From Candidatus Omnitrophota bacterium (GTDB lineage: Bacteria > Omnitrophota > Gorgyraeia > Duberdicusellales > 4484-171), in contig PMCS01000006.1 in the NCBI GenBank assembly GCA_003154195.1, positions 17,676 through 81,675 of the forward strand: a stretch of 64,000 nucleotides of DNA. The letters are read 5' to 3'. This document shows positions 2,969 to 59,560 of the stretch, piece by piece. The translations under genes and the position numbers were made by a program. Under the pieces are notes generated by a model. The model was not told the origin of the DNA. It ran no database searches and saw nothing but the letters and a program-made list of their open reading frames with translations. Position 1 is the first letter of the stretch. Each line of letters begins with the position of its first letter.

Positions 2969-4231
2969 ATGAAATACGACGTAAAAAATAAAAGTTTAAG
3001 CAAGGCCGGGAAGAAGCGAATCGAATGGGCGTTGAAACGAATGCCCGTTCTGGAATTAATCCGCGCGCGGTTCGCGAAAGAAAAGCCTTTAAAAGGAGTG
3101 ACGCTGGGCGCCTGCTTGCATGTTACTACCGAAAGCGCGGCGTTGATGCTTACTCTTAAAGAAGCCGGCGCCGACGTGAGTTTATGCGCTTCTAACCCTC
3201 TTTCGACGCAAGACGATACCGCTGCGTCCCTGGTGTGGGATTACGGCATAAAGGTATTTGCCAAGCATGGTGAAGACTCAAAGACGTACTATAGCCATAT
3301 CCGGCAAGTTGTTATGGCGCATCCTCAGGTCACGATGGATGACGGCGCGGACGTTATTGCTTTTATCCATAAAAATCACGCGGCTGATAAGAATATCGTA
3401 TTGCCGTGGGCAAGCACCGAGGAAACGACTACCGGAGTCATCCGTTTGAAAGCCCTGGAGCGGGAGGGCAAACTTTTATACCCGATTGTCGCCGTCAATG
3501 ATGCGCATACCAAGCATCTTTTCGATAATCGTTACGGTACTGGCCAATCAACTCTTGACGGGATCATCCGCGCTACCAATCGCTTGATCGCCGGGACGAC
3601 TTTTGTCGTCGCGGGGTATGGCTGGTGTTCGCGCGGCATTGCCCAGAAAGCCAGGGGCATGGGCGCCAACGTAATCGTTACGGAAGTCGACGCATTCAAA
3701 GCTCTTGAAGCGGTCATGGACGGTTTCCGGGTTATGCCGATGAGCGAAGCAGTTAAGCCGGCTGATGTTATTGTGACGGCAACCGGTGATATCAACGTCG
3801 TCGCCAAACCGCATTTTGCGCTGATGAAAGACGGCGTACTTTTAGCCAACTCCGGCCATTTTAATGTCGAGATAGAATTGCCCGCCTTGGAAAAACTATG
3901 CGTGGCGAAACGCGAAGCTAAACCGATGGTAATGGAATATACTCTTAAAAACCGGAAAAAGATTAATGTTTTAGGCGAGGGGAGGCTGGTCAATCTTGCC
4001 TGTGCCGAAGGCCACCCGGCGGAGGTTATGGATTTAAGTTTTGCCGACCAGTCCTTGAGCGCGGAATATATTGTAAAACATAAAGACGTGCTTGCGAAAA
4101 AAGTATATAAAGTCCCCGACGAAATAGATTATAGCGTCGCGGTTTTAAAACTAAAAGCAATGGGAATCGCAATCGACACCTTGACGGCGGAGCAAAAAAA
4201 ATATCTTTCCAGCTGGGAAGCGGGTACCTAA
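2969..4231 (+). CDS. ahcY: Adenosylhomocysteinase (S-adenosyl-L-homocysteine hydrolase)
   Basis: 420 aa, SD gaggaaaaATG. NAD-binding AGYGWCSRGIAQKARGMGANVIVTEVD and ...KVPDEIDYSVA motifs are typical of SAHH. It is adjacent to metK (SAM cycle). Confidence 0.95.
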   Translation: MKYDVKNKSLSKAGKKRIEWALKRMPVLELIRARFAKEKPLKGVTLGACLHVTTESAALMLTLKEAGADVSLCASNPLSTQDDTAASLVWDYGIKVFAKHGEDSKTYYSHIRQVVMAHPQVTMDDGADVIAFIHKNHAADKNIVLPWASTEETTTGVIRLKALEREGKLLYPIVAVNDAHTKHLFDNRYGTGQSTLDGIIRATNRLIAGTTFVVAGYGWCSRGIAQKARGMGANVIVTEVDAFKALEAVMDGFRVMPMSEAVKPADVIVTATGDINVVAKPHFALMKDGVLLANSGHFNVEIELPALEKLCVAKREAKPMVMEYTLKNRKKINVLGEGRLVNLACAEGHPAEVMDLSFADQSLSAEYIVKHKDVLAKKVYKVPDEIDYSVAVLKLKAMGIAIDTLTAEQKKYLSSWEAGT

Positions 4232-4233
4232 CT

Positions 4234-4302
4234 AACCTAACACTGATTTTCGCTATAGCGAAAATCAGTGTTAGGTTAGGCGACCGAAAAATTCGTTTGA
4301 CA
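4234..4302. repeat. Perfect 20-bp inverted repeat (aacctaacactgattttcgc / gcgaaaatcagtgttaggtt) followed by a second hairpin ccgaaaaatt-cgtttgaca-aatttttcgg, immediately after the ahcY stop
   Basis: Seen directly. There is no U-run after the first stem, so it is not a canonical intrinsic terminator. The second hairpin is followed by a T-rich stretch. Confidence 0.6.
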
Positions 4303-10162: not shown

Positions 10163-10258
10163 ACCGCATTTTTCCCTGCCTGCCCTCGGCTTCGCCGCGA
10201 GGCGAGCCGGTAGGCAGGACGCAGCCGGAAAAATGCGTCAAACGCATTTTTCCGGCTT
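10163..10258. repeat. GC-rich hairpin module (family G): gcatttttccctgcctgccctcggcttcgccgcgaggcgagccggtaggcagg + ccggaaaaatgcgtcaaacgcatttttccgg
   Basis: Nested inverted repeats seen directly. Related copy at 11631..11834. Confidence 0.8.
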
Positions 10259-10978
10259 GTGATAAATACGAAAATCCCCAAATATACAATCGTAGCCTTG
10301 TTGCTTATCATCTGTACCCTGCCTTTTAGGAATTTTATCGAGGGCGCTTTTCTGTTTTTTTCCCGGCGGCTTATCGTTACCGGCCCGTATTCTTATCAGC
10401 TTAAATTTCAAGAAGCAAAAAGGCAGAACCTTGGTTTGATTATGCAAATCCGCCGGCTTCGTTATCTGCAAACCGAGAACGAACGTTTGCGTAAGGCCCT
10501 TCAATTTAAAGAGGCGCACGCGGCGGATTTAATCGAGGCCAATATAATTTCGTTTAACCCCTCAAGCTGGCGCCGGATCGTCAACGTTGATATCGGCAAA
10601 CGCGCGGGGGTAAAGGATGGCTTGCTGGCGGTAAATGAAGAAGGTTATTTTGTCGGTAAACTCGGCGAGGTCAGGAATAGTTATTCGCGCTTGATTCTTG
10701 CCGATGATGTCGATTGCTCGATACCGGTTTTTATCGGCGAGTCTTCTTACGGTTTGCTGAAGGGGGGATTAAAAGGGGCAAAGGTTTTCTATGTTGAAGC
10801 GGAAGATAAAATCGAAATGGGGCAAAAAGTTTGGATAAAACTATCCTCCCTATCGTTTCCGATTTATGTGGGCCGGGTCATTAAGGCTTCAAAAGATTCG
10901 GAAGGGTTATTCTGGGATATCAACGTGGAACTATCCGCCGGGAATCCGCTGCTGGGCGAAATCTTTATCCTGAAATAA
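10259..10978 (+). CDS. mreC: Rod shape-determining protein MreC
   Basis: GTG start. N-terminal TM helix, a coiled-coil (RRLRYLQTENERLRKALQFKE), then beta-rich domains SRLILADDVDCSIPVFIG. Position between mreB and mreD. Confidence 0.85.
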   Translation: MINTKIPKYTIVALLLIICTLPFRNFIEGAFLFFSRRLIVTGPYSYQLKFQEAKRQNLGLIMQIRRLRYLQTENERLRKALQFKEAHAADLIEANIISFNPSSWRRIVNVDIGKRAGVKDGLLAVNEEGYFVGKLGEVRNSYSRLILADDVDCSIPVFIGESSYGLLKGGLKGAKVFYVEAEDKIEMGQKVWIKLSSLSFPIYVGRVIKASKDSEGLFWDINVELSAGNPLLGEIFILK

Positions 10979-11192: not shown

Positions 11193-11630
11193 ATGAAAGG
11201 AAAAAAACTTAATATAATTGGCATTCTACTCTTTTTGTTATTTTTAGATGCTTTTCGGCCATGGGGATATTTATTGCAAGTTGAGTTTGTTTTTTTAGGA
11301 ATTATTTGCCTTGCCCTGTATTGCCCGTTTAATTTTTCCTTTATCAGCGCAATCGCCCTTGGGTATTTGCGGGACTGTCTTTGCGGTACTTTCTTTTTGA
11401 CTTCCCTTGAATTTCCCGCGCTGGTATTTTTTATTGCCTACTCCAAAGATGTTTTTACTCACCGGTACGCGAAATTTTTTATAGTTACGGCGGCGCTTGG
11501 CGCGCATATAATCGTAAACAATCTATTCATCGCCGGTTCGGTTTTTCCTTTAGTGTCTTTGTTTGTTTTGCTCTTTTTTTTGCATTCCCTATTCTTTTTT
11601 TTCGTTGTCGAGCGTATCGCTTTCGCTTAA
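11193..11630 (+). CDS. mreD: Rod shape-determining protein MreD (polytopic membrane protein)
   Basis: 145 aa, five predicted TM helices, in the mreBCD position. The assignment rests on genomic context. Confidence 0.7.
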   Translation: MKGKKLNIIGILLFLLFLDAFRPWGYLLQVEFVFLGIICLALYCPFNFSFISAIALGYLRDCLCGTFFLTSLEFPALVFFIAYSKDVFTHRYAKFFIVTAALGAHIIVNNLFIAGSVFPLVSLFVLLFFLHSLFFFFVVERIAFA

Positions 11631-11834
11631 CCGGGAAAATGCGGTTACGCATTTTTCCGGTCTGGCCTGCCTGCCGGCTCGCCTCGCGGCGTCCGCCTCG
11701 GCGAGCCTTCGGCGAGACGGGAAGCCGAGGGCAGGCAGGGAAAAAAATGCCGGCAGGCAAGCGTCAAAAGCCCGCGGCCTCCCTCGGCTTCGCCGAGAGG
11801 CGAGCGCCGCGAGGCGGGCATTTTTCCGGTTAAT
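11631..11834. repeat. GC-rich hairpin module cluster (family G) filling the mreD-mrdA gap
   Basis: ccgggaaaatgcggttacgcatttttccgg; cctgcctgccggctcgcctcgcggcg...gccgagggcaggcagg; ...cctccctcggcttcgccgagaggcgagc...cgggcatttttccgg. The Arg/Pro-rich six-frame ORFs here are artefacts of the repeat. Confidence 0.85.
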
Positions 11835-14692: not shown

Positions 14693-14878
14693 CGAAGATA
14701 TTATTAGCTAAAATACTTCTTTTGCCAAATTTCCCATGTTATACGGACTCCGTATAATATGATATTACGAAGCAAAGACGGATAAATTAAATAAAAAAGT
14801 GCTATTTTTTGTATGAAAACGGTTTATTTTTGTTAAAATAATCATGGGTAACACAGAAAACACCGAATCCGTATATTA

Positions 14879-15120
14879 ATTGTTGCGCGAAATCCAAATA
14901 ATATAGAACCAGTATTTATTTCGCGCAACGCGGAGCTCAGGCTTCGCCGTTCCGCGCTTTGTCGCGCCTAAATTCAAAAATCGTACGCGCAACAAATCGC
15001 TACAGCGGAATACGCAAAATATAAGCAGGTAAATGCGCCACCTGTATTATCAAAGGAACGCGCACTTACCTGCCACCTACACTTTGCGTATTCCGCTGAG
15101 CTCCGCGTTATGCATAAATT
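14879..15120. repeat. Element A copy 1 (basic form, about 240 bp): 12-bp terminal hairpin gttgcgcgaaat...atttcgcgcaac, large inverted repeat cgcggagctcagg...cctgagctccgcg enclosing nested palindromes
   Basis: Internal palindrome cagcggaatacgcaaaatataagcaggtaa / ttacctgccacctacactttgcgtattccgctg. Two longer copies with a nested insertion are at 16612..17016 and 21062..21510. Confidence 0.9.
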
Positions 15121-15165
15121 AATACAAAAAATCAATCGAATCGAAAATAAAAAATAAAAAAATGT

Positions 15166-15190
15166 GTAGGGACAGGCCTAAGGCCTGTCC
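15166..15190. repeat. REP-like hairpin GTAG-GGACAGGCC-TAA-GGCCTGTCC, 22 nt upstream of the RAYT start
   Basis: 5' GTAG tetranucleotide followed by a perfect 9-bp palindrome. An exact inverted copy lies inside the RAYT ORF at 15496..15520. Confidence 0.8.
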
Positions 15191-15212
15191 AATACCAAAT
15201 ACCAAATAAAAA

Positions 15213-15788
15213 ATGACAAAAATATTAACACGCAAAGCGAATATACGTTTATCGGGATACGATTATACCCGATCAAATCATTATTACGTCACCGCCTGCA
15301 CCGAAAATAAACGCGAATGGTTCGGGGAAATTAAAAATAATGAAATGATATTGAATTCATACGGTAAAATCTGTTTAGAGCACCTGCAAAATCTGCCCGT
15401 TTATTATAAAAATATCAAAATTGATACGTTTGTAATTATGCCCAACCACTTTCATGCGATAATCATTATGCAAAATAATCAAATAAATCATAGCGGACAG
15501 GCCTTAGGCCTGTCCCTACATATATCGCAAAATAAATCATTGTCGAAAATTATCGGCGATTATAAATCGTTTTCTTCACGGGAAATTAATAAAATAACGG
15601 ACAATGGCCATAAATTCAAATGGCAACGCTCGTTTTATGACCACATAATCAGAAACGAAAAATCTCTGCGGAAAATCCGTGAATACATTACCAATAATCC
15701 CGTTGCCTGGGCGGAAGACGAGGAAAATATCAAGTGCATAACCATCAAATCCAGCCGACCTGAACCGTCCTGCTTCGCCCTTCGATAG
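15213..15788 (+). CDS. REP-associated tyrosine transposase (RAYT; IS200/IS605-like Y1 HuH transposase)
   Basis: HuH motif MPNHFHAII and catalytic Tyr context KWQRSFYDHIIRNE, about 67 aa apart. 191 aa, longer than IS200 TnpA and typical of RAYTs. Flanked by GTAG-type REP hairpins and element A copies. Confidence 0.8.
   Translation: MTKILTRKANIRLSGYDYTRSNHYYVTACTENKREWFGEIKNNEMILNSYGKICLEHLQNLPVYYKNIKIDTFVIMPNHFHAIIIMQNNQINHSGQALGLSLHISQNKSLSKIIGDYKSFSSREINKITDNGHKFKWQRSFYDHIIRNEKSLRKIREYITNNPVAWAEDEENIKCITIKSSRPEPSCFALR
15496..15520. repeat. Inverted copy of the GTAG REP hairpin (GGACAGGCCTTAGGCCTGTCC-CTAC), in frame inside the RAYT ORF
   Basis: Exact reverse complement of 15165..15190. Encodes SGQALGLSL in the RAYT reading frame. 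Confidence 0.8.
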
Positions 15789-15789
15789 G

Positions 15790-15850
15790 AAGTGGATAGC
15801 TTTGACGGGCTTCGCAGAGACAGGCCGGCACGAACGGTTCAGGCGGCTGA
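15790..15850. repeat. Inverted repeat gccgacctgaaccgtcc ... ggcacgaacggttcaggcggc just after the RAYT stop
   Basis: 10-bp arms cctgaaccgt / acggttcagg, seen directly. Confidence 0.6.
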
Positions 15851-15862
15851 TTATATTGTTAG

Positions 15863-16546
15863 ATGAAAATAAATATGAAAAATACATCACGAATAATCAT
15901 CTTTCTTCTTGTAGCGTCATCTGTTTTGCCATGTCGTGCAAAACAGATAAATGATCTTCGCCAAGCAGCCATTAATTATGTTGTTGCCGAACATGGACCG
16001 CAAGCAATGGGCATGAAGGAAATTTCATCAGGACAACAGAAAGGCCTAATCGTAACCGTCGAGAAACCACAGTCAAATGACAAGGCCATGTATTGGGTGA
16101 CATTTGAAGAGTCAACGCCCGTATACGCTGGAAAACCACGACCGCAAGAGAAACAGAATCTGCTTCATGCGCTTAGAATTATCGGTCCCGAATTCAGAGG
16201 CGTGTATAACGAGCGCTTGTCGGACGAAGAATTCCAGGCATTATCCGCACTGAAATCACCAAGGGATATCTTGGTTCGGGAGCCGATCGCGCAGGCGATC
16301 ATAAAAGAAAAGGTGTTACCGGGGATTGCCAGAGAATTGCAGGAAGGTCAGTTTTTCGCCAGAGAAACAGAAGCCCACTATTTTATCTTTGACTTTAGCA
16401 CAATGTCGAATAGGGGTCTAACTGGGGTCACTGTATTAGTTGATGAAGATGGGACCGTTATAACGAAATATGAACATATTGCACCAGATGATCTAGCAGC
16501 TAACAAGCCGAATGAAAAAACTACGGGAACAAGCACTGAAAGCTGA
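15863..16546 (+). CDS. Hypothetical secreted protein (signal peptide; possible lipoprotein)
   Basis: N-terminal MKINMKNTSRIIIFLLVASSVLPC signal. Nothing in the sequence indicates a function. Lies in the low-GC island. Confidence 0.55.
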   Translation: MKINMKNTSRIIIFLLVASSVLPCRAKQINDLRQAAINYVVAEHGPQAMGMKEISSGQQKGLIVTVEKPQSNDKAMYWVTFEESTPVYAGKPRPQEKQNLLHALRIIGPEFRGVYNERLSDEEFQALSALKSPRDILVREPIAQAIIKEKVLPGIARELQEGQFFARETEAHYFIFDFSTMSNRGLTGVTVLVDEDGTVITKYEHIAPDDLAANKPNEKTTGTSTES

Positions 16547-16555
16547 AAATAAATT

Positions 16556-17016
16556 TAATATCTAACAATTTCATCCAGCGGACTTTGCCTGCGGCAAAAC
16601 CGCTGATTATTATGTTGCGCGAAATCCAAATAATATGGAATCAGTATTTATTAATGAGACTTCGCCGAATGAACGCGCGCAGCGCGTTCGGTGAGGCGGT
16701 AGTGAAACTTATCCCGCCGTATTCGGCGGGATGTAGTTGAACTATCCCCGCAGGGGGTAGTCGAATTAGCGCAACGCGGAGCTCAGGCTTCGCCGTTCCG
16801 CGCTTTGTCGCGCCTAAATTCAAAAATCGTACGCGCACGATACACCTTAATGTAAGTATTCGGTAAGTCCCGCTGAACCGTAGAGGTGAAGCGGGGACAA
16901 ATCGCTCCAGCAGAATACGCAAAATGTAAGCAGGTAAATGCGCCGCCTGTATCATTCAAAGGAACGCGCACTTACCTGCCACCTACACTTTGCGTATTCC
17001 GCTGAGCTCCGCGTTA
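16556..17016. repeat. Terminator cassette T1 (16556-16611) plus element A copy 2 with a nested reverse-oriented CTCATTAA-family insertion
   Basis: T1 is atctaacaatttcatccagcggactttgcctgcggcaaaaccgctgattatt. A2 begins gttgcgcgaaatccaaataatatggaatcagtatttatt. An inserted segment ttaatgagacttcgccg...gggatagttcaactacatcccgccg follows, then the cgcggagctcagg...ctgagctccgcgtta body. The antisense ORF 16641..16955 is repeat-derived. Confidence 0.9.
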
Positions 17017-17049
17017 GATGTAAAATATAAATAAAACGGGGCGCAAAAA

Positions 17050-18105: not shown

Positions 18106-18202
18106 GCCGGACCAGGAACTTAAAATTAAACAAAAAGAAATCCAGGGTTTATCACCAAAAAAACTACGGGGTCAAACACTGAAAGCTGAAAAGAAAATAA
18201 AA

Positions 18203-18260
18203 CATCTAACAAACTAATCCAGCGAGATCTCGCCAAGGGCGGACCGCTGATTTTTGTGTT
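18203..18260 (+). terminator. Terminator cassette T2 (atctaacaaactaatccagcgagatctcgccaagggcggaccgctgatttttgtgtt)
   Basis: Stem followed by a T-run. A second copy is at 22069..22135. Confidence 0.55.
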
Positions 18261-19161: not shown

Positions 19162-19800
19162 ATGGCTAGTTTGGAAAAATCGGGATTAGAAATTGTCGCC
19201 AAATTAATGTCAATATCTGCTAGGACCGCTCCAAAGTCCGGCGGTATTGACCATGTACATATAATGGTTGCGTCTTCCAGTAAACAAAAATCTATCGCTG
19301 GCATGATGAAAAAAGTTGCAGAACAAATTTGTCAAAAATTACCAAATAGCAAGCTTGGAAATGCAATAAAAGAAGATTGGGAAAGTGATGCCAGTAGTAT
19401 CATAGAATCCGGCCTTCTGGTGCTAATAGGAGTTGAAGGTAGAAAAGCAATAGGTCTGAATTGTGGAGGATGTGGATTTTCTACCTGTTCAGAAATGTTA
19501 AAACATCGTCGAATTTCCTTAACAGAACATAGTCTTATTGGTCCTTATTGTATTTTTAAAGTAATGGATTTAAGTATTGCGTCAGCATCAGCAGTTAAAA
19601 CTGCAATGGAACACAATGTTGATAACCGTATGATGTATAAAGCAGGAGTTGCGGCTTTAAAATTAGGTATTTTAAATCCATGTGATTTAATAATGGGCAT
19701 ACCGCTATCAGCGACAGGAAAAAATATTTATTTTGATAGAACAGATAAACTTGATGCATGGAAGGTAATCAAATCGAATAAAAATAATAAAGAACCATAA
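19162..19800 (+). CDS. Hypothetical protein with a CGGCGFSTC Cys motif (possible metal/Fe-S binding)
   Basis: Start set at the ATG 9 nt after SD aggagg (track ORF begins at TTG 19111). Motif NCGGCGFSTC plus distal C residues. Resemblance to DUF2148-type ferredoxin-domain proteins is a recollection. Confidence 0.5.
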   Translation: MASLEKSGLEIVAKLMSISARTAPKSGGIDHVHIMVASSSKQKSIAGMMKKVAEQICQKLPNSKLGNAIKEDWESDASSIIESGLLVLIGVEGRKAIGLNCGGCGFSTCSEMLKHRRISLTEHSLIGPYCIFKVMDLSIASASAVKTAMEHNVDNRMMYKAGVAALKLGILNPCDLIMGIPLSATGKNIYFDRTDKLDAWKVIKSNKNNKEP

Positions 19801-19851
19801 CAATTTCATCCAGCGGATTTTGCCTGCGGCAAAACCGCTGATTATTGTGTT
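19796..19851 (+). terminator. Terminator cassette T1 copy 2 (ataacaatttcatccagcggattttgcctgcggcaaaaccgctgattatt)
   Basis: 13-bp stem cagcggttttgcc with a one-base bulge, then a T-rich tail. Near-identical to 16556..16611. Confidence 0.6.
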
Positions 19852-20994: not shown

Positions 20995-21510
20995 CCTATA
21001 ACAAATCAATCAACCGGACTTTTTCGCGGCTTTTTAAAGCCGCTCAAAAGCCGGTTATTTCTATGTTGCGCGAAATCCAAATAATATAGAATCAGTATTT
21101 ATTAATGAGACTTCGTCGAACGAACGTGCGAAGTGCATTCAGTGAGGCGGTAGTGAAACTTATCCTGCCGTATTCGGCGGGATGTAGTTGAACTATCCCC
21201 GCAGGGGGTAGTCGAATTAGCGCAACGCGGAGCTCAGGCTTCGCCGTTCCGCGCTTTGTCGCGCCTAAATTAAAAAATCGTACGCGCACGCGAAGCACCT
21301 TAATGTAAGCATGCAGCGAGTCCCGCCGTAGGCGGGGACAAATCGCTTCCGCCAAAAACAAGATACGGCGGACAGGCCATCGGAAATCGCGTATAAGTAC
21401 GCGGATAAACCTGCCACCTATATCATTTAATAGTAAGCAGGCTTATCCGCTACCTTGATAGCGCAATGGAGTTTATCCTGAGCGAAGTCGAAGGGCTGAG
21501 CTCCGCGGTA
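20995..21510. repeat. Hairpin module (ccggactttttcgcggctttttaaagccgctcaaaagccgg) plus element A copy 3 (longest, about 450 bp)
   Basis: Begins gttgcgcgaaatccaaataatatagaatcagtatttatt + ttaatgagacttcgtcg..., with the same body as copy 2 plus extra internal sequence, and ends ctgagctccgcggta. The antisense ORF 21092..21361 is repeat-derived. Confidence 0.9.
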
Positions 21511-21598
21511 GAACTATATGAAAAATAAAGTCGTAAATTTTACCGCAAAAACACAGCAAATATGTTATAATTTAGCCAAGAACATAGGAGGAATAAAA

Positions 21599-21778: not shown

Positions 21779-22068
21779 CAATACTCTGGTCAGAGCCATC
21801 CATTTCGGATTTAAAAAATATTAAAGACTATATCGCCAAAGACTCCCCTTATTATGCCGCCATCTTTATTGAAAAAATAATTACCGCCGTCGAAAAACTT
21901 GCCACCCTTCCACTCGTCGGACGCATCGTTACTGAATGTAACGACAAACACATAAGAGAAGTAATATATCAACACTACCGAATAATTTACAAAATTAATC
22001 ATAAAGCCCTCATCATCTTAACCGTGGTGCATGGCGGCCGTGATTTGTCCGGCTGGGCTAAAAAATAA
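21775..22068 (+). CDS. ParE/RelE-family type II toxin
   Basis: 97 aa with the typical ParE-like pattern ...YYAAIFIEKIITAVEKLATLPLVGRIV...REVIYQHYRIIYKI...ILTVVHGGRDL. Confidence 0.75.
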   Translation: MTILWSEPSISDLKNIKDYIAKDSPYYAAIFIEKIITAVEKLATLPLVGRIVTECNDKHIREVIYQHYRIIYKINHKALIILTVVHGGRDLSGWAKK

Positions 22069-22135
22069 TCAAATTGCTAACCGATCAATCCAGCGAGATC
22101 TCGCCAAAGGCGGACTGCTGATTTATGCGTTGCGC
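22069..22135 (+). terminator. Terminator cassette T2 copy 2 followed by a truncated element-A start (gttgcgcgaaat)
   Basis: aatccagcgagatctcgccaaaggcggactgctgatttatgcgttgcgcgaaat. Confidence 0.55.
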
Positions 22136-22248: not shown

Positions 22249-23871
22249 ATGAATTTTGCTCAGTTCCAAAAACCCCAGCGCTATATCGGCAATGAGTGGA
22301 ATGTCGTCAAAAAAGATCATGCCGGTAGGATAAAAATATGCCTGTCTTACCCTGATACCTACGAAATCGGGATGAGCAATCTAGGTTTACGCATCATCTA
22401 TTCCCTGCTTAACGATTTCGACGATGTTGTTTGCGAGCGGGTTTTCCTGCCCGACGATGATTTTGCCGCGTTTTTCCGAAATTCCCAAGCCCCGCTTTTT
22501 TCCCTGGAGACAAAAACTGCGTTAAAAGATTTCGAGGTTATCGGTTTTAATCTAAGCTGCGAACTTAATCTCACTAATTTTTTAGATATTCTTTCTTTGG
22601 GAGGCATTCCGCTATTGGCCGCCGAGCGCGAGAAAGTGATTATTGTGGGGGGAGGCATTGCCAATCCTGAACCGGTAGCGGATTTTGTCGATGTGTTTTT
22701 TATGGGAGAGTTTGAAGATTCTGCCGCCGCTTTTGTCGAGGTTTTGCGCAAAGTCAAAGATAAAGAGGAACGCCTTAAGGCGCTGGCGCAAATCGACGGG
22801 TTCTATGTCCCGAAATTTTACGCTGCCGGTTTTAACGGCGCTAAATATTCTTTTGAAAAAAAATACGCTGCTGCGAATTTTCCCATCCGCCGCATGTTTG
22901 TAAAAGATTTCAATAACGCGCCTCATCCGGATAAATGGCTTGTTCCTTATGGGCAGATTGTCCATGACCGCGTCCAGGTCGAGATCGCCCGCGGATGCCC
23001 CAACGCCTGCGTTTTTTGCCAGGCACGCGCGGTTTACCGCCCTTATCGCGAGCGGAGCATCCCGGCGATCATGGATATTTTAAGAAAAAGTTACGAGAAT
23101 AGCGGTTATGAGGAATTTACCCTGCTGGCGCTCTCCGTATCGAATTATTCCCATATTGAGGAACTGATCGATGAAAGCATCGATTATTTTAAAGATAAGA
23201 AGGTAGGACTATCGCTGCCATCTTTACGCGTGGATGATATTCTGGGCCGCCTGCATTCCAAGCTTTCAAGCATAAAAAATAGTTCCTTAACGGTTGCGGT
23301 AGAGGCGGCCAGGGATTGTCTGCGCGATAAATTAAATAAGAAAATAGATTTAGCGAAGCTTTTTGAGGCAGGGCAAATCCTGCGCGCGTTAAAAATAAGA
23401 AAGGCCAAGCTTTATTTCATGTTCGGATTTTCCGATGAAACCGATGAAGATTTAGCCGCGATCGGTAAGTTTTTGCACGAATTGAGCTATAAGACGCGGT
23501 TGAATTTAAACGTGAGTATTAATGTGTTTGTGCCTAAGCCTTTTTCCCTGTGGGAGGGTGAAAAAATGGATAGTGAGGAAACCCTGCTCAATAAACGGCA
23601 AATTATCCTTAACCACGCTCCGGCGGTAAGATATATCGATATTTCGATATCGTCGATAAAGAAAAGTATTTTTGAAGGTATCGTGAGCCGTGCCGATCGA
23701 AGTTTTTCCCGTGTTTTGCTTAACGCCTACAGGAAAGGAGCGCGCCGCGATTCCAGTTCCGAGCGCTTTAACTGGGATATCTGGGAAGCGGCGATGAAGG
23801 AGGAAGGATTCGACTGGCATTTTTGTTTAGAGGCGAAAACGGAGAATCATCCGTGGAATATTATTGAATAA
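22249..23871 (+). CDS. Radical SAM protein with N-terminal B12-binding-like domain (TIGR03960-type uncharacterised rSAM)
   Basis: CxxxCxxC motif in VEIARGCPNACVFCQARAVY. 540 aa. Preceded by the conserved short leader ttttttacggagtaaaaaataaATG. Confidence 0.85.
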   Translation: MNFAQFQKPQRYIGNEWNVVKKDHAGRIKICLSYPDTYEIGMSNLGLRIIYSLLNDFDDVVCERVFLPDDDFAAFFRNSQAPLFSLETKTALKDFEVIGFNLSCELNLTNFLDILSLGGIPLLAAEREKVIIVGGGIANPEPVADFVDVFFMGEFEDSAAAFVEVLRKVKDKEERLKALAQIDGFYVPKFYAAGFNGAKYSFEKKYAAANFPIRRMFVKDFNNAPHPDKWLVPYGQIVHDRVQVEIARGCPNACVFCQARAVYRPYRERSIPAIMDILRKSYENSGYEEFTLLALSVSNYSHIEELIDESIDYFKDKKVGLSLPSLRVDDILGRLHSKLSSIKNSSLTVAVEAARDCLRDKLNKKIDLAKLFEAGQILRALKIRKAKLYFMFGFSDETDEDLAAIGKFLHELSYKTRLNLNVSINVFVPKPFSLWEGEKMDSEETLLNKRQIILNHAPAVRYIDISISSIKKSIFEGIVSRADRSFSRVLLNAYRKGARRDSSSERFNWDIWEAAMKEEGFDWHFCLEAKTENHPWNIIE

Positions 23872-23877
23872 AATATT

Positions 23878-23962
23878 GTAGGGGCAGGGTCACCCTGCCC
23901 GGATAAACAATCGATAATTTTCGCCAAATAAAATAATCGGGCGGGGAAACCCAGCCCCTACA
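23878..23962. repeat. REP doublet (BIME-like): GTAG-gggcagggtcaccctgccc ... gggcggggaaacccagcccc-CTAC in inverted orientation
   Basis: GTAG/CTAC termini and GC-rich palindromes seen directly. Same GTAGGG type as the hairpins flanking the RAYT. Confidence 0.7.
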
Positions 23963-23993: not shown

Positions 23994-24305
23994 ATGGACA
24001 TTCAGAAATACCCCATCAAAGTTACCTTGCATAAACGCGGCGAGATGATTTATTTCTCCCAGCTCGATATGGTGCGTATTTTAGAACGCGCTTTGCGCCG
24101 GGCCGGCCTTCCGATATATTTCACCCAGGGGTTTAACCCCCATGTTAAATTAAGTTTTTTAAACGGGCTCAAGCTCGGCGTGGATGGCAGCTTGGAGGTT
24201 GTTTTGTATTTTACGCAAAAAATCGAACCGGATTCTGTGCGGCAAAAACTTATTCCGCAGTTACCGGAAGGTTTGGATATTATCGGCTGTGAGGTAAAAA
24301 ATTAG
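23994..24305 (+). CDS. Radical-SAM-linked small protein (DUF2344/TIGR03936-like)
   Basis: 103 aa, immediately downstream of the rSAM gene. The conserved rSAM plus small-partner pairing is recalled from memory. No SD. Confidence 0.55.
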   Translation: MDIQKYPIKVTLHKRGEMIYFSQLDMVRILERALRRAGLPIYFTQGFNPHVKLSFLNGLKLGVDGSLEVVLYFTQKIEPDSVRQKLIPQLPEGLDIIGCEVKN

Positions 24306-27699: not shown

Positions 27700-27960
27700 A
27701 TCCAAAACCGTAGGCGCGCTTAGAGCGCGACTTCAGGTTTTGGGTAATGAGGCTTCGCCGAAATCAAGCGCGAAGCGCGCAGGTTGAGGCGGTAGCCGAA
27801 CTTCCCGCCTGCGCTTCACTCGGCGGGATCACGCTTCCTTGATATAACCATATTAGGAAGGCGGTGAACCTCGAGCGAGGAGCGAAGCGACGAGTCGAGG
27901 GATAATGAGCCTTAATTTTTTTCCGCCTATGGCGGGAAAAAAATCCAGGTCTTATTAATA
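27700..27960. repeat. Mosaic repeat (reverse-oriented modules of the CTCATTAA family) in the polyamine-operon upstream region
   Basis: ccgtaggcgcgcttagagcgcgac; taatgaggcttcgccg; the reverse complement of 27780-27870 matches the ggttcaccgcc..cccgccgag..gcaggcgggaa module at 34220 and 51940; ttttttccgcctatggcgggaaaaaaa hairpin. Confidence 0.8.
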
Positions 27961-34164: not shown

Positions 34165-34440
34165 TTCCGGGGGGTGAATTTATTTTTTGCGCAGTAAACC
34201 CCCTCGCTAACGCTTCAGGGGTTCACCGCCTCCCTGATAATTATATCAAGGAAGCGGGATCCCGCCGAGTGAAACGCAGGCGGGAAATTCGACTACCGCC
34301 TCGTCTGGCGACCCCGCCATCCCATAGATGGCGAGGTCTCGTCAATTCGTTTAACGAATTGACGGACTTCAGGCTTGATAATTCAACTAAGCCCTGGGTA
34401 CCGGGCTAGTTTCATTACGGCGAAGTCTCATTAATAATTT
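34165..34440. repeat. Mosaic repeat (CTCATTAA family, long form) inserted between the hyfC-like and hyfE-like genes
   Basis: ggggg...tttattttttgcgcagtaaaccccc; ggggttcaccgcctcc; gcgggatcccgccgag; gcaggcgggaaattcgac; ggataattcaactaagccctgggtaccgggctagtttcattacggcgaagtctcattaataatttATG. Confidence 0.85.
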
Positions 34441-38939: not shown

Positions 38940-40785
38940 ATGGATAAAATAAAACTCGGCTGTTTTAAAAAACATTTTTACGCGTATATCGCTTTATCTA
39001 TCGGGATTATCCTTTCCCTACTTCTTTTTATTTATTCCCGTAAACTGGAAACAAAATATTTACATGGTGAATTTAATCTTCTGGCGCGGGATCGCGCCAG
39101 CATCATTATTAACGGCGTATTGGATAACCTGGATTTCGTTAAATCAATAGCTCATTTTTACGCCGGCAGCGTAAGCGTGGAGCGCAACGAATTCCACGAA
39201 TTTACCCGCCAAACCCTTACCGAGCGTCACGATATTTACGAGTTTCGCTGGCTTAAGCGAGTTTCCGGGCCGCAGCGCCAGGCGTTTGAAGAAACGGCTT
39301 CCCGGGAGTTGGGCTATAATTTTTATATCAAAGATCGCGCCGGGGAAGGCGATTTCCTGAGAGCGCCATCGCGCGAAGAATATTTCCCGGTTTTTTTTAT
39401 CGAGCCCGGAGACGCGGCTAAAAATAAAATGTTAGGTTTTGACGCCGCCGGCGTACCGGAACGCTTACGGGCGATGAAAAAGGCTTGCGCTACCGGTGAG
39501 GCGGTAATCGTCCCGGAGTTGGTGATTTTTGGTGAATCAAAATTTAAAACCGCGACGCGTATTTATATCCCTGTCTACCTAAATGGTATTCCCCATAAAA
39601 CTATTGAAGAGCGCCTTAAGAATCTTACCGGTTTCGCGGTCGTTTTATTTAATATGGAAGCTATGGCGGATATTCTACTCAAGGATATGCGCGGGATGGG
39701 TATTGATACTTACGTATATGATGAAGCGCTTCCCGCAGGCAAACGCCTTATTCTAGTTGATTGCTCCCTCGCCCCGGGAAAGCCTATCGTGCCAATTTTC
39801 GGGGAAGAACAGCTAAGGGGTACAACCGGCATCGCCTGGAAAAGGTCGTTTAACGTGGCTGATTCAAAATGGACGATAGTCTGCCGCGCTGCCCCGGCAT
39901 TTTTAAAAAACCATCGGCAGAGGGTGCTAACTCCCTGGTTTATTTTAGCGGTATGCTTACTTATTACCCTAATCGCTGCGCTTTATATCGATAACCTCGT
40001 TAGGCGTGCTTCTATTGTTCAAGCGTTGGTTGAACAAAAAACCGAAGAGTTAAAAGTTCTGCACGCGCAACTCGCTCAGCAGTTCAAAATGGCCGCCATC
40101 GGGCAATTGGCCGGCGGCGTTGCTCATGAAATAAATAATCCCCTCGCAGGTATTTTAAATAATCTCCAATTGATAAAGATGAAGATGGGGGACGGCCGGA
40201 AATTTGAGGTTGCAGAATTTAAGGAAACTTTACAAGTTATGGAAAAATCCGGCCTGCGATGCAAGAATATAGTCAAATCCTTGATTGATTTTTCCGGGCC
40301 TTCGAGTGAATATCTGGAGCCGGTATCGCTTAATGATCTTGTGGCGAAAGCCAGGGAATTGGTTTCCGAAAAATTAAAGATTAACCATATCGATTTCATC
40401 GAAGAACTAGAGCCGGACATGCCTAAAATCATCGGCGACCGCCGGCTTCTACAGCGGGCGGTTTTTGATCTTCTGTCTAATTCTTGCTGGGCAATCGGCA
40501 AAAAAAAACGGGCCTTCCGGCGGTACGGTGCGGATAAAGACATGGCATGAGCAAAAAAACAATCTTGTCGCCATCGCTATTTCCGACACCGGTATCGGCA
40601 TCCCTAAAGAAAATATAAAGAAAATATTCGAACCTTTTTTTACGACTAAAGATGTAGGTGAGGGGACTGGCCTCGCCTTGGCTTTGGTATATAGCGTCGT
40701 TAAGCTTCACAAGGGTACGATTGAGGTGGAAAGCGAAGTTGATAACGGCGCGACATTTACGATAAAACTGCCGGTTGGTGGATAA
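38940..40785 (+). pseudogene. Sensor histidine kinase (periplasmic CHASE-like sensor, TM, HisKA, HATPase_c) interrupted by a +1 frameshift in an A9 run
   Basis: Frame 1 (38940..40550) carries the sensor, TM2 and the H-box MAAIGQLAGGVAHEINNPLAGI and ends ...[14 protein letters not shown]. The ATP-binding G-boxes continue in another frame (40465..40785: GGTVRIKT...DTGIGIP...[10 protein letters not shown]). The junction is caaaaaaaaacggg at about 40499-40508. Deleting one A restores [14 protein letters not shown]. Confidence 0.8.
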
Positions 40786-42491: not shown

Positions 42492-42564
42492 GCCGACGTA
42501 GCTCAGTTGGTAGAGCAGCTCATTCGTAATGAGCAGGTCGAAGGTTCGACTCCTTTCGTCGGCT
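42492..42564 (+). tRNA. tRNA-Thr (anticodon CGT)
   Basis: Acceptor stem GCCGACG/CGTCGGC, D-arm TAGCTCAGTTGGTAGAGCA, anticodon stem-loop GCTCA-TTCGTAA-TGAGC, T-arm GAAGG-TTCGACT-CCTTT. No encoded CCA. Confidence 0.9.
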
Positions 42565-44280: not shown

Positions 44281-44500
44281 ATTTTATTTTTTGCGCAGCA
44301 ATCCCCGTTGTTGGGGATAATTCGACTATCCCCTACGGGGATAGTTCAACTAAAGACATTTGTTGCGGCTTCGCCACACAAATGTCTAAGTTTCACTACA
44401 GCCTCAATCGGCGTCCCCCTTGCGCGGGGCTTGTAATGAAACTTGCCCCGGGGCACCGGGCTTAGTTTCATTATCGGCTAAGTCTCATTAAAAGAAAATT
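44281..44500. repeat. Mosaic repeat (CTCATTAA family, long form) forming the purN upstream region
   Basis: ttttattttttgcgcagcaatccccgttgttgggga; ggataattcgactatcccctacggggatagttcaactaa; gacatttgttgcggcttcgccacacaaatgtc; tttcactacagcctcaatcggcgtcccccttgcgcggggc; gaaacttgccccggggcaccgggcttagtttcattatcggctaagtctcattaaaagaaaattATG. Confidence 0.9.
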
Positions 44501-45103
44501 ATGAATATAGCAGTTTTTGCTTCGGGTAACGGAACGAATTTTGAAGCGATCGCTAAGGCGATAAGGCGCGGTTATATAAAAGCGAACCTTGCGCTTTTGG
44601 TCTGCGATAATCCCGCAGCTTTTGTTATCAAGCGGGCAAAGCGTCTTAAGATAAAATCAGTCTTAATCGACCGGAATTTATTTTCTACAAAGAACGATTT
44701 TGAAAAAGAAATCATCAGAAACCTGAGAAAAGAAAAGGTTAGTTTGATTATCCTTGCCGGTTTCATGCGGCTGTTAAGTCCCGGCTTTGTCGCGCTTTAT
44801 CGTAACAAGATAATAAATATCCACCCCGCGATATTGCCTTCTTTCAAGGGTATTGATTCGATAAAGAAGGCTTACGAATACGGGTGCAAGGTTGCCGGCG
44901 TTACCGTTCATTTTGTCGACGAAAAAACCGACCACGGTCCGATAATTTTGCAGGAAGCGGTCAAGATTAAAACCGGGATGAGCCTTTCCGGTTTAGAGCG
45001 CCGTATTCATCGCCTGGAGCATAAACTTTACCCCCTGGCTGTTAAGTTATTTGTTGAAGGGGAACTGAAGGTGAGGGGGAGGAGAGTTATTCTTTTGAGT
45101 TGA
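44501..45103 (+). CDS. purN: Phosphoribosylglycinamide formyltransferase
   Basis: MNIAVFASGNGTNFEAIAKA...IINIHPAILPSFKGIDSIKKAYEYGCKVAGVTVHFVDEKTDHGPIILQEAV, the PurN signature. Confidence 0.92.
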   Translation: MNIAVFASGNGTNFEAIAKAIRRGYIKANLALLVCDNPAAFVIKRAKRLKIKSVLIDRNLFSTKNDFEKEIIRNLRKEKVSLIILAGFMRLLSPGFVALYRNKIINIHPAILPSFKGIDSIKKAYEYGCKVAGVTVHFVDEKTDHGPIILQEAVKIKTGMSLSGLERRIHRLEHKLYPLAVKLFVEGELKVRGRRVILLS

Positions 45104-45247: not shown

Positions 45248-46084
45248 CTAATTTCCTTCCAAGAGCGCTTTCCGGGAATAAAAAACCGCGTTTTTGTGGG
45301 CGATATCATTTATCTCAAATGAGTTGATTTCCGGGGCGTCGTAGATTTTTAAAAACCGGCGGATTGATTTTTTTATCTCGTCACCGGCGTTAAACGATAC
45401 CGCGGTTTTGTTTACCGGCGTTACGTCGAGAATCACGGAAAGGCGGCCGTCGGCATAATAAGAATACAGGTCGTTTGTTTTGAAATTTTTGACCATTTCC
45501 TTGTCGGTTAATTTTCGTTCCAGGTTCTGTTTTATGAGATAGGCAAGAAAATTGCCCATCTCCATTTCCGGCATGGTTATATGTTTTCCCAGCGCATCGC
45601 CGATTGCTTCGGTGGTAAGCAAGAAAGTAAAAACTTCCCGCTCCTGCCATTCGCTTAACGAGATCATGCCCGCGTCGACTTTCATTATATCGAGAACCGT
45701 ACCGATATAATAAAGGTCGGCGCCGGTTTTTATATCGGAAAAAACAAACGCATAAAATTTTGGCCGTTTTTCCATACTGAGGATGACGCGTTTTAGCGCG
45801 GTAAAAATCTGGCGCATTTTTGTGTTGGCGTCGTTGTCGAAGGTTTTCTTTTCGGTAAGGATTTTATTGAGGGGAACGTAAACCCAGATAGTGTCGCCGG
45901 CCTCGCGGACAACCGGTTTTACATTAAATTCTTTTCCGCAGATATTAACCAACGATGTTTCGATGTTTTTACGGTTATAGGTATATTTAGGTTTAGAAGG
46001 AGAACAAGCCGGCAAGCATAAGAGAAAAAAAACAACAAGGACGTGCTCAACCAGCTTCTTTAAATACCGCTTCGATTTCGTCAT
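45248..46084 (-). CDS. Hypothetical lipoprotein
   Basis: Lipobox-like FFLLCLPAC. 278 aa. Its 5' end overlaps the 3' end of the upstream FtsH gene by 38 nt, so the start is uncertain. Confidence 0.5.
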   Translation of the reverse strand: MTKSKRYLKKLVEHVLVVFFLLCLPACSPSKPKYTYNRKNIETSLVNICGKEFNVKPVVREAGDTIWVYVPLNKILTEKKTFDNDANTKMRQIFTALKRVILSMEKRPKFYAFVFSDIKTGADLYYIGTVLDIMKVDAGMISLSEWQEREVFTFLLTTEAIGDALGKHITMPEMEMGNFLAYLIKQNLERKLTDKEMVKNFKTNDLYSYYADGRLSVILDVTPVNKTAVSFNAGDEIKKSIRRFLKIYDAPEINSFEINDIAHKNAVFYSRKALLEGN

Positions 46085-51879: not shown

Positions 51880-52134
51880 CATCAGCGAAGCTGATGAGCA
51901 GATATTTTTTTACGCAGTAAACCCCTCCACCGATGTTCCGGGGTTCACCGCCTTCCTAAAATTAATATATCGAGGAAGCGGGATCCCGCCGAGTCGCTAC
52001 TCAGACGCAGGCGGGAAATTCGGCTATCCCCTTACGGGGATAATTCAACTAAGCCCGGGGTACCGGGCAAGTTTCATTACCACCTCGTGCTACGCCTTTC
52101 GGACTTGCGCTCGGTTAAGCCTCATTAAAAATAT
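51880..52134. repeat. Mosaic repeat (CTCATTAA family, long form) abutting the purU start
   Basis: atcagcgaagctgat; tttttttacgcagtaaacccctcc; ggggttcaccgccttcc; gcgggatcccgccgag; gcaggcgggaaattcggctatccccttacggggataattcaactaagcccggggtaccgggcaagtttcattac; cttgcgctcggttaagcctcattaaaaatatATG. Confidence 0.9.
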
Positions 52135-59414: not shown

Positions 59415-59427
59415 TGTTTCTTTCTCC

Positions 59428-59560
59428 TTTAATGAGACTTCGCCGATAATGAAACTTGCCCGGTACCCCGGGCTTAGTTGAATTATCCCCGCAAGGGGAT
59501 AGGCGAAGGGTGATGAGTTCGAAGTTTCACCAAATGCCCGACGGCATTACCGGCAGGCAT
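59428..59560. repeat. Mosaic repeat (CTCATTAA family) in reverse orientation, serving the minus-strand PpiD-like gene
   Basis: Reverse complement reads cgcctatccccttgcggggataattcaactaagcccggggtaccgggcaagtttcattatcggcgaagtctcattaa. Nearly identical to the module at 52040-52090. Confidence 0.85.

Follow-up and report, generated by a model that had tools for sequence, protein, structure and literature searches.

The closest described relatives of the locus analyzed here belong to TnpA-Y1 subclass 2.4 of Quentin et al. (2018; BMC Genomics 19:475, PMC6006769), which is equated with Bertels et al.'s (2017) group 4 of REP-associated tyrosine transposases (RAYTs), REP standing for repetitive extragenic palindrome. 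Enzymes of this subclass carry the signature NH[IFV]H / WQ / YIxNNP (PMC6006769, Table 1), have a median length of 194 aa, are accompanied by 'double foot' REPs and harbor a variable insertion between strand beta3 and helix alphaC. REPs lying in frame between the HuH motif and the catalytic Tyr are unique to the subclass, and the region bearing them has been modelled as a peripheral extension; for class 1 TnpA, the motifs are DH[VI]H and Y[IV]ENQ (PMC6006769). Bertels et al. found the flanking 16-mers of group 4 to be only modestly abundant, and in our literature search intragenic REPs in RAYT genes were discussed nowhere besides Quentin et al. (2018). The in-frame arrangement itself is an already known hallmark of subclass 2.4. 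We here describe a RAYT gene in a 64,000-nt stretch of a Candidatus Omnitrophota contig (the window), with one REP just upstream of the gene and the reverse complement of that REP embedded in the coding sequence, and we present comparative data suggesting that the embedded REP is long-standing, constrained at the level of its nucleotides and passed on together with the gene, and no fresh insertion. The locus adds a further RAYT to subclass 2.4, from a lineage that has been little studied, and it confirms the published peculiarity; only the evidence that the intragenic REP is old and constrained goes beyond the literature. The useful increment consists of identical synonymous sites at 60-70% core identity, a hairpin type that follows the protein tree, and persistence of the embedded copy without an upstream one.

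The locus resembles subclass 2.4 in its motifs, in protein length, in the beta3-alphaC insertion, in having GT[AG]G-footed REPs both beside and inside the gene, in the low abundance of these REPs and in the scatter of homologues over many phyla. It differs in that this clade's REP, a short hairpin of 9 bp, has only a single clean foot (GTAG...CCG-xTAC), unlike the 13-bp 'double foot' palindrome of most members, and in that the gene has no downstream REP. Whereas intragenic REPs were treated as insertions by Quentin et al., the orthologues compared here show conservation at synonymous sites.

E. coli TnpA-REP, a RAYT of group 2 (PDB 4ER8; Ton-Hoang 2012, Messing 2012), is the best match of the window protein in both sequence and fold, with HUH and Tyr motifs that align. 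It reportedly recognises a GTAG-footed REP hairpin. The two proteins are, however, only 18% identical, and the E. coli enzyme has DHLH / WE / YIHYNP-type motifs, no beta3-alphaC insertion, no intragenic REP, and hundreds of REPs per genome. The TnpA proteins of the IS200/IS605 family (IS608, ISDra2, IS200) likewise share the HUH/Y1 fold and have subterminal hairpins with a 5' guide tetranucleotide, and IS200 has a leader hairpin adjoining the start codon. They differ from the window protein in their class 1 motifs (DH[VI]H, Y..Q), in their size of ~130-150 aa, in being multicopy, and in having left and right ends that lie outside the gene. Short palindromes tolerated in frame and adding a surface peptide are also known as intragenic GTAG/CGTC REPs (Di Nocera et al. 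2013; cf. the Rickettsia palindromic elements, RPEs), but those hit unrelated host genes at varied sites, whereas here the host is the presumed recognising enzyme and the same loop is used throughout the family.

The transposase and its REP hairpins

The window open reading frame (ORF) encodes an HUH/Y1 nuclease-transposase of the REP-associated class (RAYT / TnpA-REP). The Pfam model Y1_Tnp (PF01797) matches with 34.9 bits (E 1.9e-8), exceeding its cut-off of 23, in two stretches broken around residues ~90-101. The best NCBIfam model is the equivalog REP_Tyr_transpos (NF047646), also matching in two stretches (71.6 bits), and transpos_IS200 fails, with 18.6 bits against a cut-off of 55. A search for relatives gave 350 homologues, and in an alignment of 30 of them H79, H81 and Y158 are invariant, as are I159 and N162, with P163 present in at least 90% of the sequences. 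Y142 (FYDH; WQRSFYDH = residues 137-144) is replaced by His in several homologues. Since Y158 is invariant and Y142 variable, the catalytic Tyr lies 79 residues past H79, and not about 67 as had been read from the sequence before any database search; Y142, which is nearer to that spacing, is not the conserved one. The HFH motif of IS200/IS605 type proposed in the same reading (the sequence-only reading hereafter) is borne out by the Y1_Tnp match and its position at residues 79-81. Given the motifs NHFH (78-81), WQ (137-138) and YITNNP (158-163) and the protein length, which fit the published signature, the enzyme belongs to TnpA-Y1 subclass 2.4, that is, RAYT group 4.

Structural comparisons point the same way. 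A profile built from the 30 homologues had a sole match in the PDB, E. coli TnpA-REP 4ER8, in which HMH aligns with HFH and Y115 (YIYINP) with Y158. The AlphaFold (AF2) model of the protein has a predicted local distance difference test score (pLDDT) of 85.9, and Foldseek places 4ER8 first, followed by the IS608, ISDra2 and IS200 transposases; the top 30 PDB matches are all TnpA-REP, IS608, ISDra2 or IS200 transposases, with E values from 1e-6 to 4e-4. Residues 87-109, between the HUH strand and the helix formed by residues 110-128 (alphaC), are modelled as coil, with a mean pLDDT of 56 for residues 91-100 and of 71 for residues 101-110.

The operational REP rule of Quentin et al. (2018) asks for GT[AG]G located 0-2 nt 5' of a fully paired stem of 7-20 bp, a loop of 2-5 nt, and at least three G/C among the first four stem bases. 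The hairpin that the sequence-only reading had placed 22 nt upstream of the gene is present and conforms to this rule, with GTAG directly abutting the 9-bp stem GGACAGGCC, GGAC as the first four stem bases, and the loop TAA; the REP unit of the gene can be written GTAGGGACAGGNC-TAA-GNCCTGTCC. When the window was searched for GTAGGGACAGGCCTAAGGCCTGTCC, an exact reverse complement was found at 15495-15519 (-) and no further match at up to 3 mismatches, and none of 100 dinucleotide shuffles gave any match. The in-frame internal copy announced by the sequence-only reading is therefore real, although its coordinates, given there as 15496-15520, were off by one. The inverted repeat as a whole reaches 29 nt (15162-15190 / 15495-15523). 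Translation of the internal copy, whose start coincides with the first base of codon G95, gives G-Q-A-L-G-L-S-L, and the codon of H103 completes ...CTACAT. The relative orientation of the two copies is that of a REPIN (a pair of inverted REPs around a short spacer, folding as a single long hairpin; Bertels and Rainey), yet their spacer of 304 nt is the 5' part of the gene itself. No copy was found 3' of the gene in the window search, unlike in many homologues, so that the idea of REPs flanking the gene has to be given up: one copy is upstream, the other internal, and none downstream. The coordinates of these and other features are collected in Table 1.

Table 1. Features of the RAYT locus and of associated hairpins in the window
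Feature	Position	Strand	Remarks
RAYT / TnpA-REP gene, TnpA-Y1 subclass 2.4 type	15213..15788	+	ORF, 191 aa
HUH motif codons H79-F80-H81, inside MPNHFH (residues 76-81)	15447..15455	+	from alignment; HMH in 4ER8
Catalytic Tyr motif Y158-I-T-N-N-P (EYITNNP = residues 157-163)	15684..15701	+	from alignment; Y115-IYINP in 4ER8
Upstream REP, GTAGGGACAGGCCTAAGGCCTGTCC: GTAG foot, 9-bp stem GGACAGGCC/GGCCTGTCC, loop TAA	15166..15190	+	22 nt before ATG (-47 to -23)
Embedded REP: the upstream copy in reverse complement, with 2 adjoining conserved bases	15495..15521	-	in frame, G95-QALGLSL-H103
Second REP type, left unit of inverted doublet: GTAG + GGGCAGGG-TCA-CCCTGCCC (GTAGGGGCAGGG-TCA-CCCTGCCC)	23878..23900	+	intergenic
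Second REP type, right unit, one stem mismatch	23939..23961	-	GTAG feet outward, 38-nt spacer
Element A copy directly upstream of the RAYT gene: nested long hairpin, MITE/REPIN-like (MITE, miniature inverted-repeat transposable element)	14927..15109	+	repeat families D3, D6, D7, D16
Long imperfect hairpin over RAYT 3' end and stop codon, D2-type, not GTAG-footed	15748..15852	+	DNA fold -28.7 kcal/mol, z = -5.2

Conservation of the embedded REP

DNA was retrieved for four close homologues (P0002, P0005, P0007 and P0011, corresponding to loci L081 and L083-L085), with identities of 56-68% overall and 60-70% over the conserved core; where members of this group bear a name, their annotation is Omnitrophota or PVC-group bacteria. 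The window gene and all four loci share the block GGACAGGCCTTAGGCCTGTCCCTACAT without any difference over its 27 nt, in the same orientation and the same codon phase, and the loop residues flanking it differ among the five genes in both sequence and number. At alignment columns where the five proteins share a degenerate amino acid, codons are identical in 9 of 9 cases within the hairpin and in 12 of 69 elsewhere (Fisher p = 1.6e-6). Because of this 27-nt and codon identity at only 60-70% core identity, the embedded REP is most probably not a recent landing. Whether related orthologues lack the internal palindrome had been raised as a check; all four keep it.

The flanking copies behave differently. 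In four loci (the window, L081, L083 and L084) the ATG is preceded, at a distance of 11-24 nt, by an upstream REP. In L081 it has drifted, with a compensated pair (GGACAGGGC...GCCCTGTCC) and the foot GTAA, and in L085 it is absent; in both loci the internal copy is unchanged. These two patterns argue for selection on each local hairpin and not on pairing between the copies.

A wider comparison gave a similar picture. We fetched 80 homologous loci from many phyla, in 72 of which the motifs allowed the gene to be placed, so that, with the window gene, the DNA between the HUH and WQ motifs could be examined in 73. A perfect stem of at least 8 bp occurs in this interval in 59 loci, and the mean longest stem there is 10.3 bp, compared to 5.7 and 6.6 in other gene parts of equal length and 5.3 in shuffles. 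The embedded form is usually GTAGGG[G/A]C-N5-(2-3 nt)-N5'-G[C/T]CCCTAC, and between genomes the five inner pairs show full compensation. An in-frame REP, which the sequence-only reading had called unusual, is indeed so for RAYTs in general, but within subclass 2.4 it is a published peculiarity found in most of the loci examined here. The hairpin type tracks protein relatedness: among 66 loci, protein identity is 0.56 in pairs with a common inner stem 5-mer, versus 0.47 in the others (p = 3e-14), and an identical 28-nt palindrome is found in a Desulfuromonas locus and a Terriglobia locus whose proteins are 57% identical. Of 62 loci, 31 have the same hairpin at another place as well, often within ~200 nt before the ATG or ~90 nt past the stop.

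The reading phase of the embedded palindrome is restricted. Among loci L001-L080, the 3' C[TC]AC foot could be placed in 37, with codon phase 0 in 18 and phase 1 in 19; in the third phase, which is absent, the 5' GTAG of a 28-nt palindrome would read xxG-TAG, with a TAG stop. We had considered that the palindromes might be translated in all three frames, which is rejected since the CTAC foot occurs in two phases only. We also rejected the idea that GQALGLSLH, VGTGLDLSLQ and CRDRSRPVPT represent a conserved peptide, because the same kind of palindrome is read in different phases.

The loop is variable in what it carries. No perfect stem of 8 bp or more is found between the HUH and WQ motifs in 14 of the 73 genes, and in at least eight of these the loop is ~10 residues shorter. 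Conversely, tandem or multiple embedded copies exist in four homologues (L025, L046, L050 and L052), and a second in-frame REP, GTAGGGACAAGGC-TAA-GCCTTGTCC on the + strand, encoding the peptide CRDKAKPCP between alphaC and WQ, is present in L083 (1-1100), L085 (3431) and L090 (659). In L083 the whole gene cassette lies between the copies of a direct repeat of ~85 nt composed of hairpin tail, spacer and REP.

A possible cis-acting role and its alternatives

On balance we lean towards the view that the locus combines a subclass 2.4 RAYT with its cognate GTAG-footed hairpins and that the embedded copy has been retained as a cis-acting site, not for its peptide. Enzyme and hairpins would together constitute a small 'REPtron' just downstream of the mreBC-mrdA-rodA cluster, with one REP in the leader and the second, borne by the other strand, within the variable loop that joins the HUH strand to alphaC. 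From E. coli TnpA-REP and IS608 TnpA we infer that these hairpins can be bound and cleaved: by analogy, the enzyme would bind a hairpin once the DNA is single-stranded and, guided by the GTAG foot, cut and rejoin via Tyr158, the HFH pair holding the metal. The translated embedded REP (GQALGLSLH) would be a tolerated surface peptide. The embedded copy might be kept as the enzyme's own site in cis, for self-recognition or feedback, or as a resident REP that travels with the gene; such a regulatory or seed role we infer likewise, and a role in cis is favored because conservation is independent of the flanking copies and the hairpin is co-inherited with the protein. A more specific proposition, namely that selection acts on the embedded REP as an element in cis (either a 'master' copy resident in the gene or a site of self-recognition), so that it is no tolerated insertion but is maintained by purifying selection at the nucleotide level, independently of flanking copies, and co-inherited with the enzyme across phyla, is put forward tentatively, as one that could well turn out otherwise. 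If this proposition were true, a domesticated transposase would be physically coupled to the sequence that it recognises. If the constraint is functional, subclass 2.4 would provide a compact system (~600 bp, comprising enzyme and site) for RAYT-REP matching, and self-regulation of RAYTs via their own target would become open to test.

Several points weigh against this account of the locus. The best NCBIfam model, REP_Tyr_transpos, scores less than its curated cut-off of 80. Lacking a downstream REP, the locus shows only part of the classic REP-gene-REP layout, and the cognate REP is no dispersed family within the 64 kb, an exact scan of metagenome contigs (see below) yielding only four. The hairpin is dispensable for the protein, in at least 11 of the 73 homologues, and at least eight of those lacking it simply have shorter loops. 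The activity of subclass 2.4 enzymes on such hairpins is extrapolated from E. coli TnpA-REP. Finally, the 27-nt identity could come from replacement or conversion by genomic REPs outside our view, without any function in cis.

This last point leads to the alternative that fares best, that of a passive, tolerated insertion. Mobilised REPs would land in the gene of their own transposase, and those that are in frame and free of stops in the beta3-alphaC loop would survive there without a role, being refreshed from the REP pool. Such a view accords with that of Quentin et al. (2018), who regard the insertions as peripheral and of little impact, and it is compatible with the location of the REP peptide in a loop modelled at low confidence, with the tandem, multiple and second in-frame copies seen in some homologues, with the loops shorter by ~10 residues in hairpin-less homologues, and with the absence of just that one phase in which a TAG stop would arise from the GTAG foot. 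It is less easily reconciled with the occurrence of the same 27 nt, in the same phase and orientation, in five lineages at 60-70% core identity while adjacent loop residues turn over, nor would it predict that the internal copy is kept where the external one differs (L081) or is missing (L085), or that the hairpin type follows the protein tree across phyla. Moreover, the pool of donor copies that it requires was not found within 64 kb. We therefore regard passive insertion as rather unlikely, although deserving of consideration.

A retained site could alternatively act in the RNA. The leader and embedded REPs would form a 29-bp duplex around the start codon and the first 94 codons, which might block translation or create an RNase III site; or else local hairpins might slow translation, like the leader hairpin of IS200. 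The upstream REP, at only 22 nt from the ATG, is almost certainly co-transcribed, the 29-bp long-range duplex is present in both the minimum free energy and the centroid RNA fold of 15140-15560 (z = -7.3), and L081, L083 and L084 likewise have a (+) copy upstream and a (-) copy inside the gene. The comparative data, however, contradict what thermodynamics predicts, and long-range mRNA pairing of the two REPs was rejected on these grounds: the upstream copy of L081 is changed on both sides of the stem, which keeps the local hairpin and introduces 3 mismatches in the long-range duplex, and L085 retains the internal copy without any upstream partner. Co-transcriptional folding would also favor local hairpins, and a promoter scan around the gene gave signals at shuffle level, so that no promoter was located. 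Control at the RNA level is accordingly improbable in our estimation.

An active IS200/IS605-like insertion sequence with the REPs as left- and right-end hairpins, in place of a domesticated single-copy RAYT, could be suspected from the fact that homologous loci have their hairpins mostly close around the gene, the L083 cassette bracketed by its ~85-nt direct repeat, a deletion derivative of the same gene in another sample (P0014) and the presence of some homologue clusters on several contigs, but it is very improbable in view of the class 2 motifs (NHFH, YITNNP) in place of those of class 1 (DH[VI]H, Y[IV]ENQ), the failing transpos_IS200 score, the single copy in 64 kb within a housekeeping context, the lack of a same-type right-end hairpin, one 'end' instead falling inside the gene, and a published mean copy number for subclass 2.4 of 1.5 per genome at 40% identity.

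The deletion derivative P0014, a JGI metagenome protein of 154 aa, lacks residues 41-124 of the same RAYT, comprising the HUH motif and the embedded REP; its junction lies between two GGGAAATTAA microhomologies (window ~15327 and ~15580), and its C-terminus is frameshifted. It is a decayed RAYT copy in a related population.

Dispersal of REPs, genomic context and other repeats

Within the 64-kb window the cognate REP exists in two copies, both at the RAYT gene. GT[AG]G-footed perfect hairpins number five, as opposed to 0.8 in shuffles, and three of the five are GC-rich GTAG REPs, namely both RAYT copies and the hairpin at 23878. The latter is the left unit of the related GTAG/CTAC doublet that had been noticed in the sequence-only reading and that proved to be real; its right unit (23961, - strand) is detected only when one stem mismatch is allowed. 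With two inverted REPs around a 38-nt spacer, the doublet (23878-23961) would fit the REPIN layout, and it sits in a 122-nt gap between a radical-SAM ORF (22249-23871; Radical_SAM_N2) and a DUF2344 ORF (23994-24305).

The exact 25-mer was found on four JGI metagenome contigs. One carries an intact RAYT with the internal copy, one carries a RAYT remnant, and the other two (L088 and L089) are a single sequence present as reverse-complement contigs, on which an intergenic inverted REP doublet, with units ~86 nt apart, is accompanied by a third inner-stem variant 2 kb off; no RAYT was found within 6 kb of this doublet. The cognate REP can thus occur apart from the gene, yet it is rare in the data searched. 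Whether the GTAG palindromes are unique to this locus or a dispersed family, a point on which the earlier interpretation was made to depend, has a mixed answer, copies in the 64 kb being found only at the gene and a doublet on another contig.

The gene lies in a housekeeping neighborhood. Pfam scans of 48 other ORFs of at least 90 aa identified, among others, scpB, metK, ahcY, pfk, ilvD, mreB and mreC; PBP2 and RodA, recognized by inspection of the sequence outside these scans, are encoded directly upstream of the RAYT, and complex-I-like subunits and PFOR are encoded farther along the window. The RAYT is present once in the 64 kb, and no other transposase, integrase or recombinase was found among the 48 ORFs, 10 of which had no Pfam match at all; to this extent, its designation as the sole recombinase candidate holds. 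An Rfam scan of the whole window detected only a tRNA (42492-42564), leaving the repeats without a curated RNA family.

Two types of repeat adjoin the gene. Element A is a modular repeat of ~250-480 nt with copies at 14867-15135, 16596-17036 and 21047-21530 that are 89-99% identical over shared modules; it has no Rfam match and no GTAG-footed short hairpin. The hairpin of the copy upstream of the RAYT has a DNA fold of -53.1 kcal/mol with z = -8.0 (14915-15112). Copies of element A had been said to flank the gene, which is true of the upstream side (14867-15135), but the next copy (16596-17036) lies beyond the neighboring gene.

The D2 hairpin family (...ATCCAGCGG...CCGCTGAT...) follows right after the stops of successive genes (16545-16616, 18189-18260, 19780-19851 and 22060-22131), and the ends of the long hairpin over the RAYT stop codon (15748-15852) resemble its copies. 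The C-terminal tails of three RAYT homologues (P0005, P0010 and P0024; CIT.QSS...) read into D2-like sequence, and the D2 hairpin may be associated with the RAYT gene in several genomes. Since element A and the D2 hairpin carry no GTAG-footed short hairpin, both are, on present evidence, unconnected to the RAYT enzyme. The RAYT had also been proposed to disseminate some of the repeats of the window, but nothing ties it to element A or to any other of these families; none of them is a short hairpin with a GTAG foot.

A third dispersed family consists of short palindromic modules, often ending in AAG[T/C]CTCATTAA, in intergenic positions just before genes. Its copies (27786-27873, 34241-34302, 34377-34437, 44318-44352, 44447-44502, 51939-52131, 59422-59507, 16734-16768 and 21185-21219) occur in both orientations, with arms of 61-62 nt that are 94-97% complementary. 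Right after the stop of the S-adenosylhomocysteine hydrolase ORF (2969-4231) lies a perfect 48-nt palindrome (4232-4279) made of two 24-nt arms with no spacer. An inverted repeat (10169-10232 / 11652-11745; 25 nt perfect plus 40 nt at 83%) surrounds ~1.4 kb containing mreC (10259-10978) and a 145-aa ORF (11193-11630).

Two genes of the window have an unusual structure. A histidine kinase is split between overlapping ORFs in different frames (CHASE and HisKA in 38940-40550, HATPase_c in 40465-40785), which could reflect a frameshift, a pseudogene or an assembly error. A 1006-aa ORF (46047-49067, -) has two AAA and two peptidase M41 stretches and looks like a tandem double FtsH; a direct repeat of 59 nt inside it (46548 and 47910) would agree with an internal duplication.

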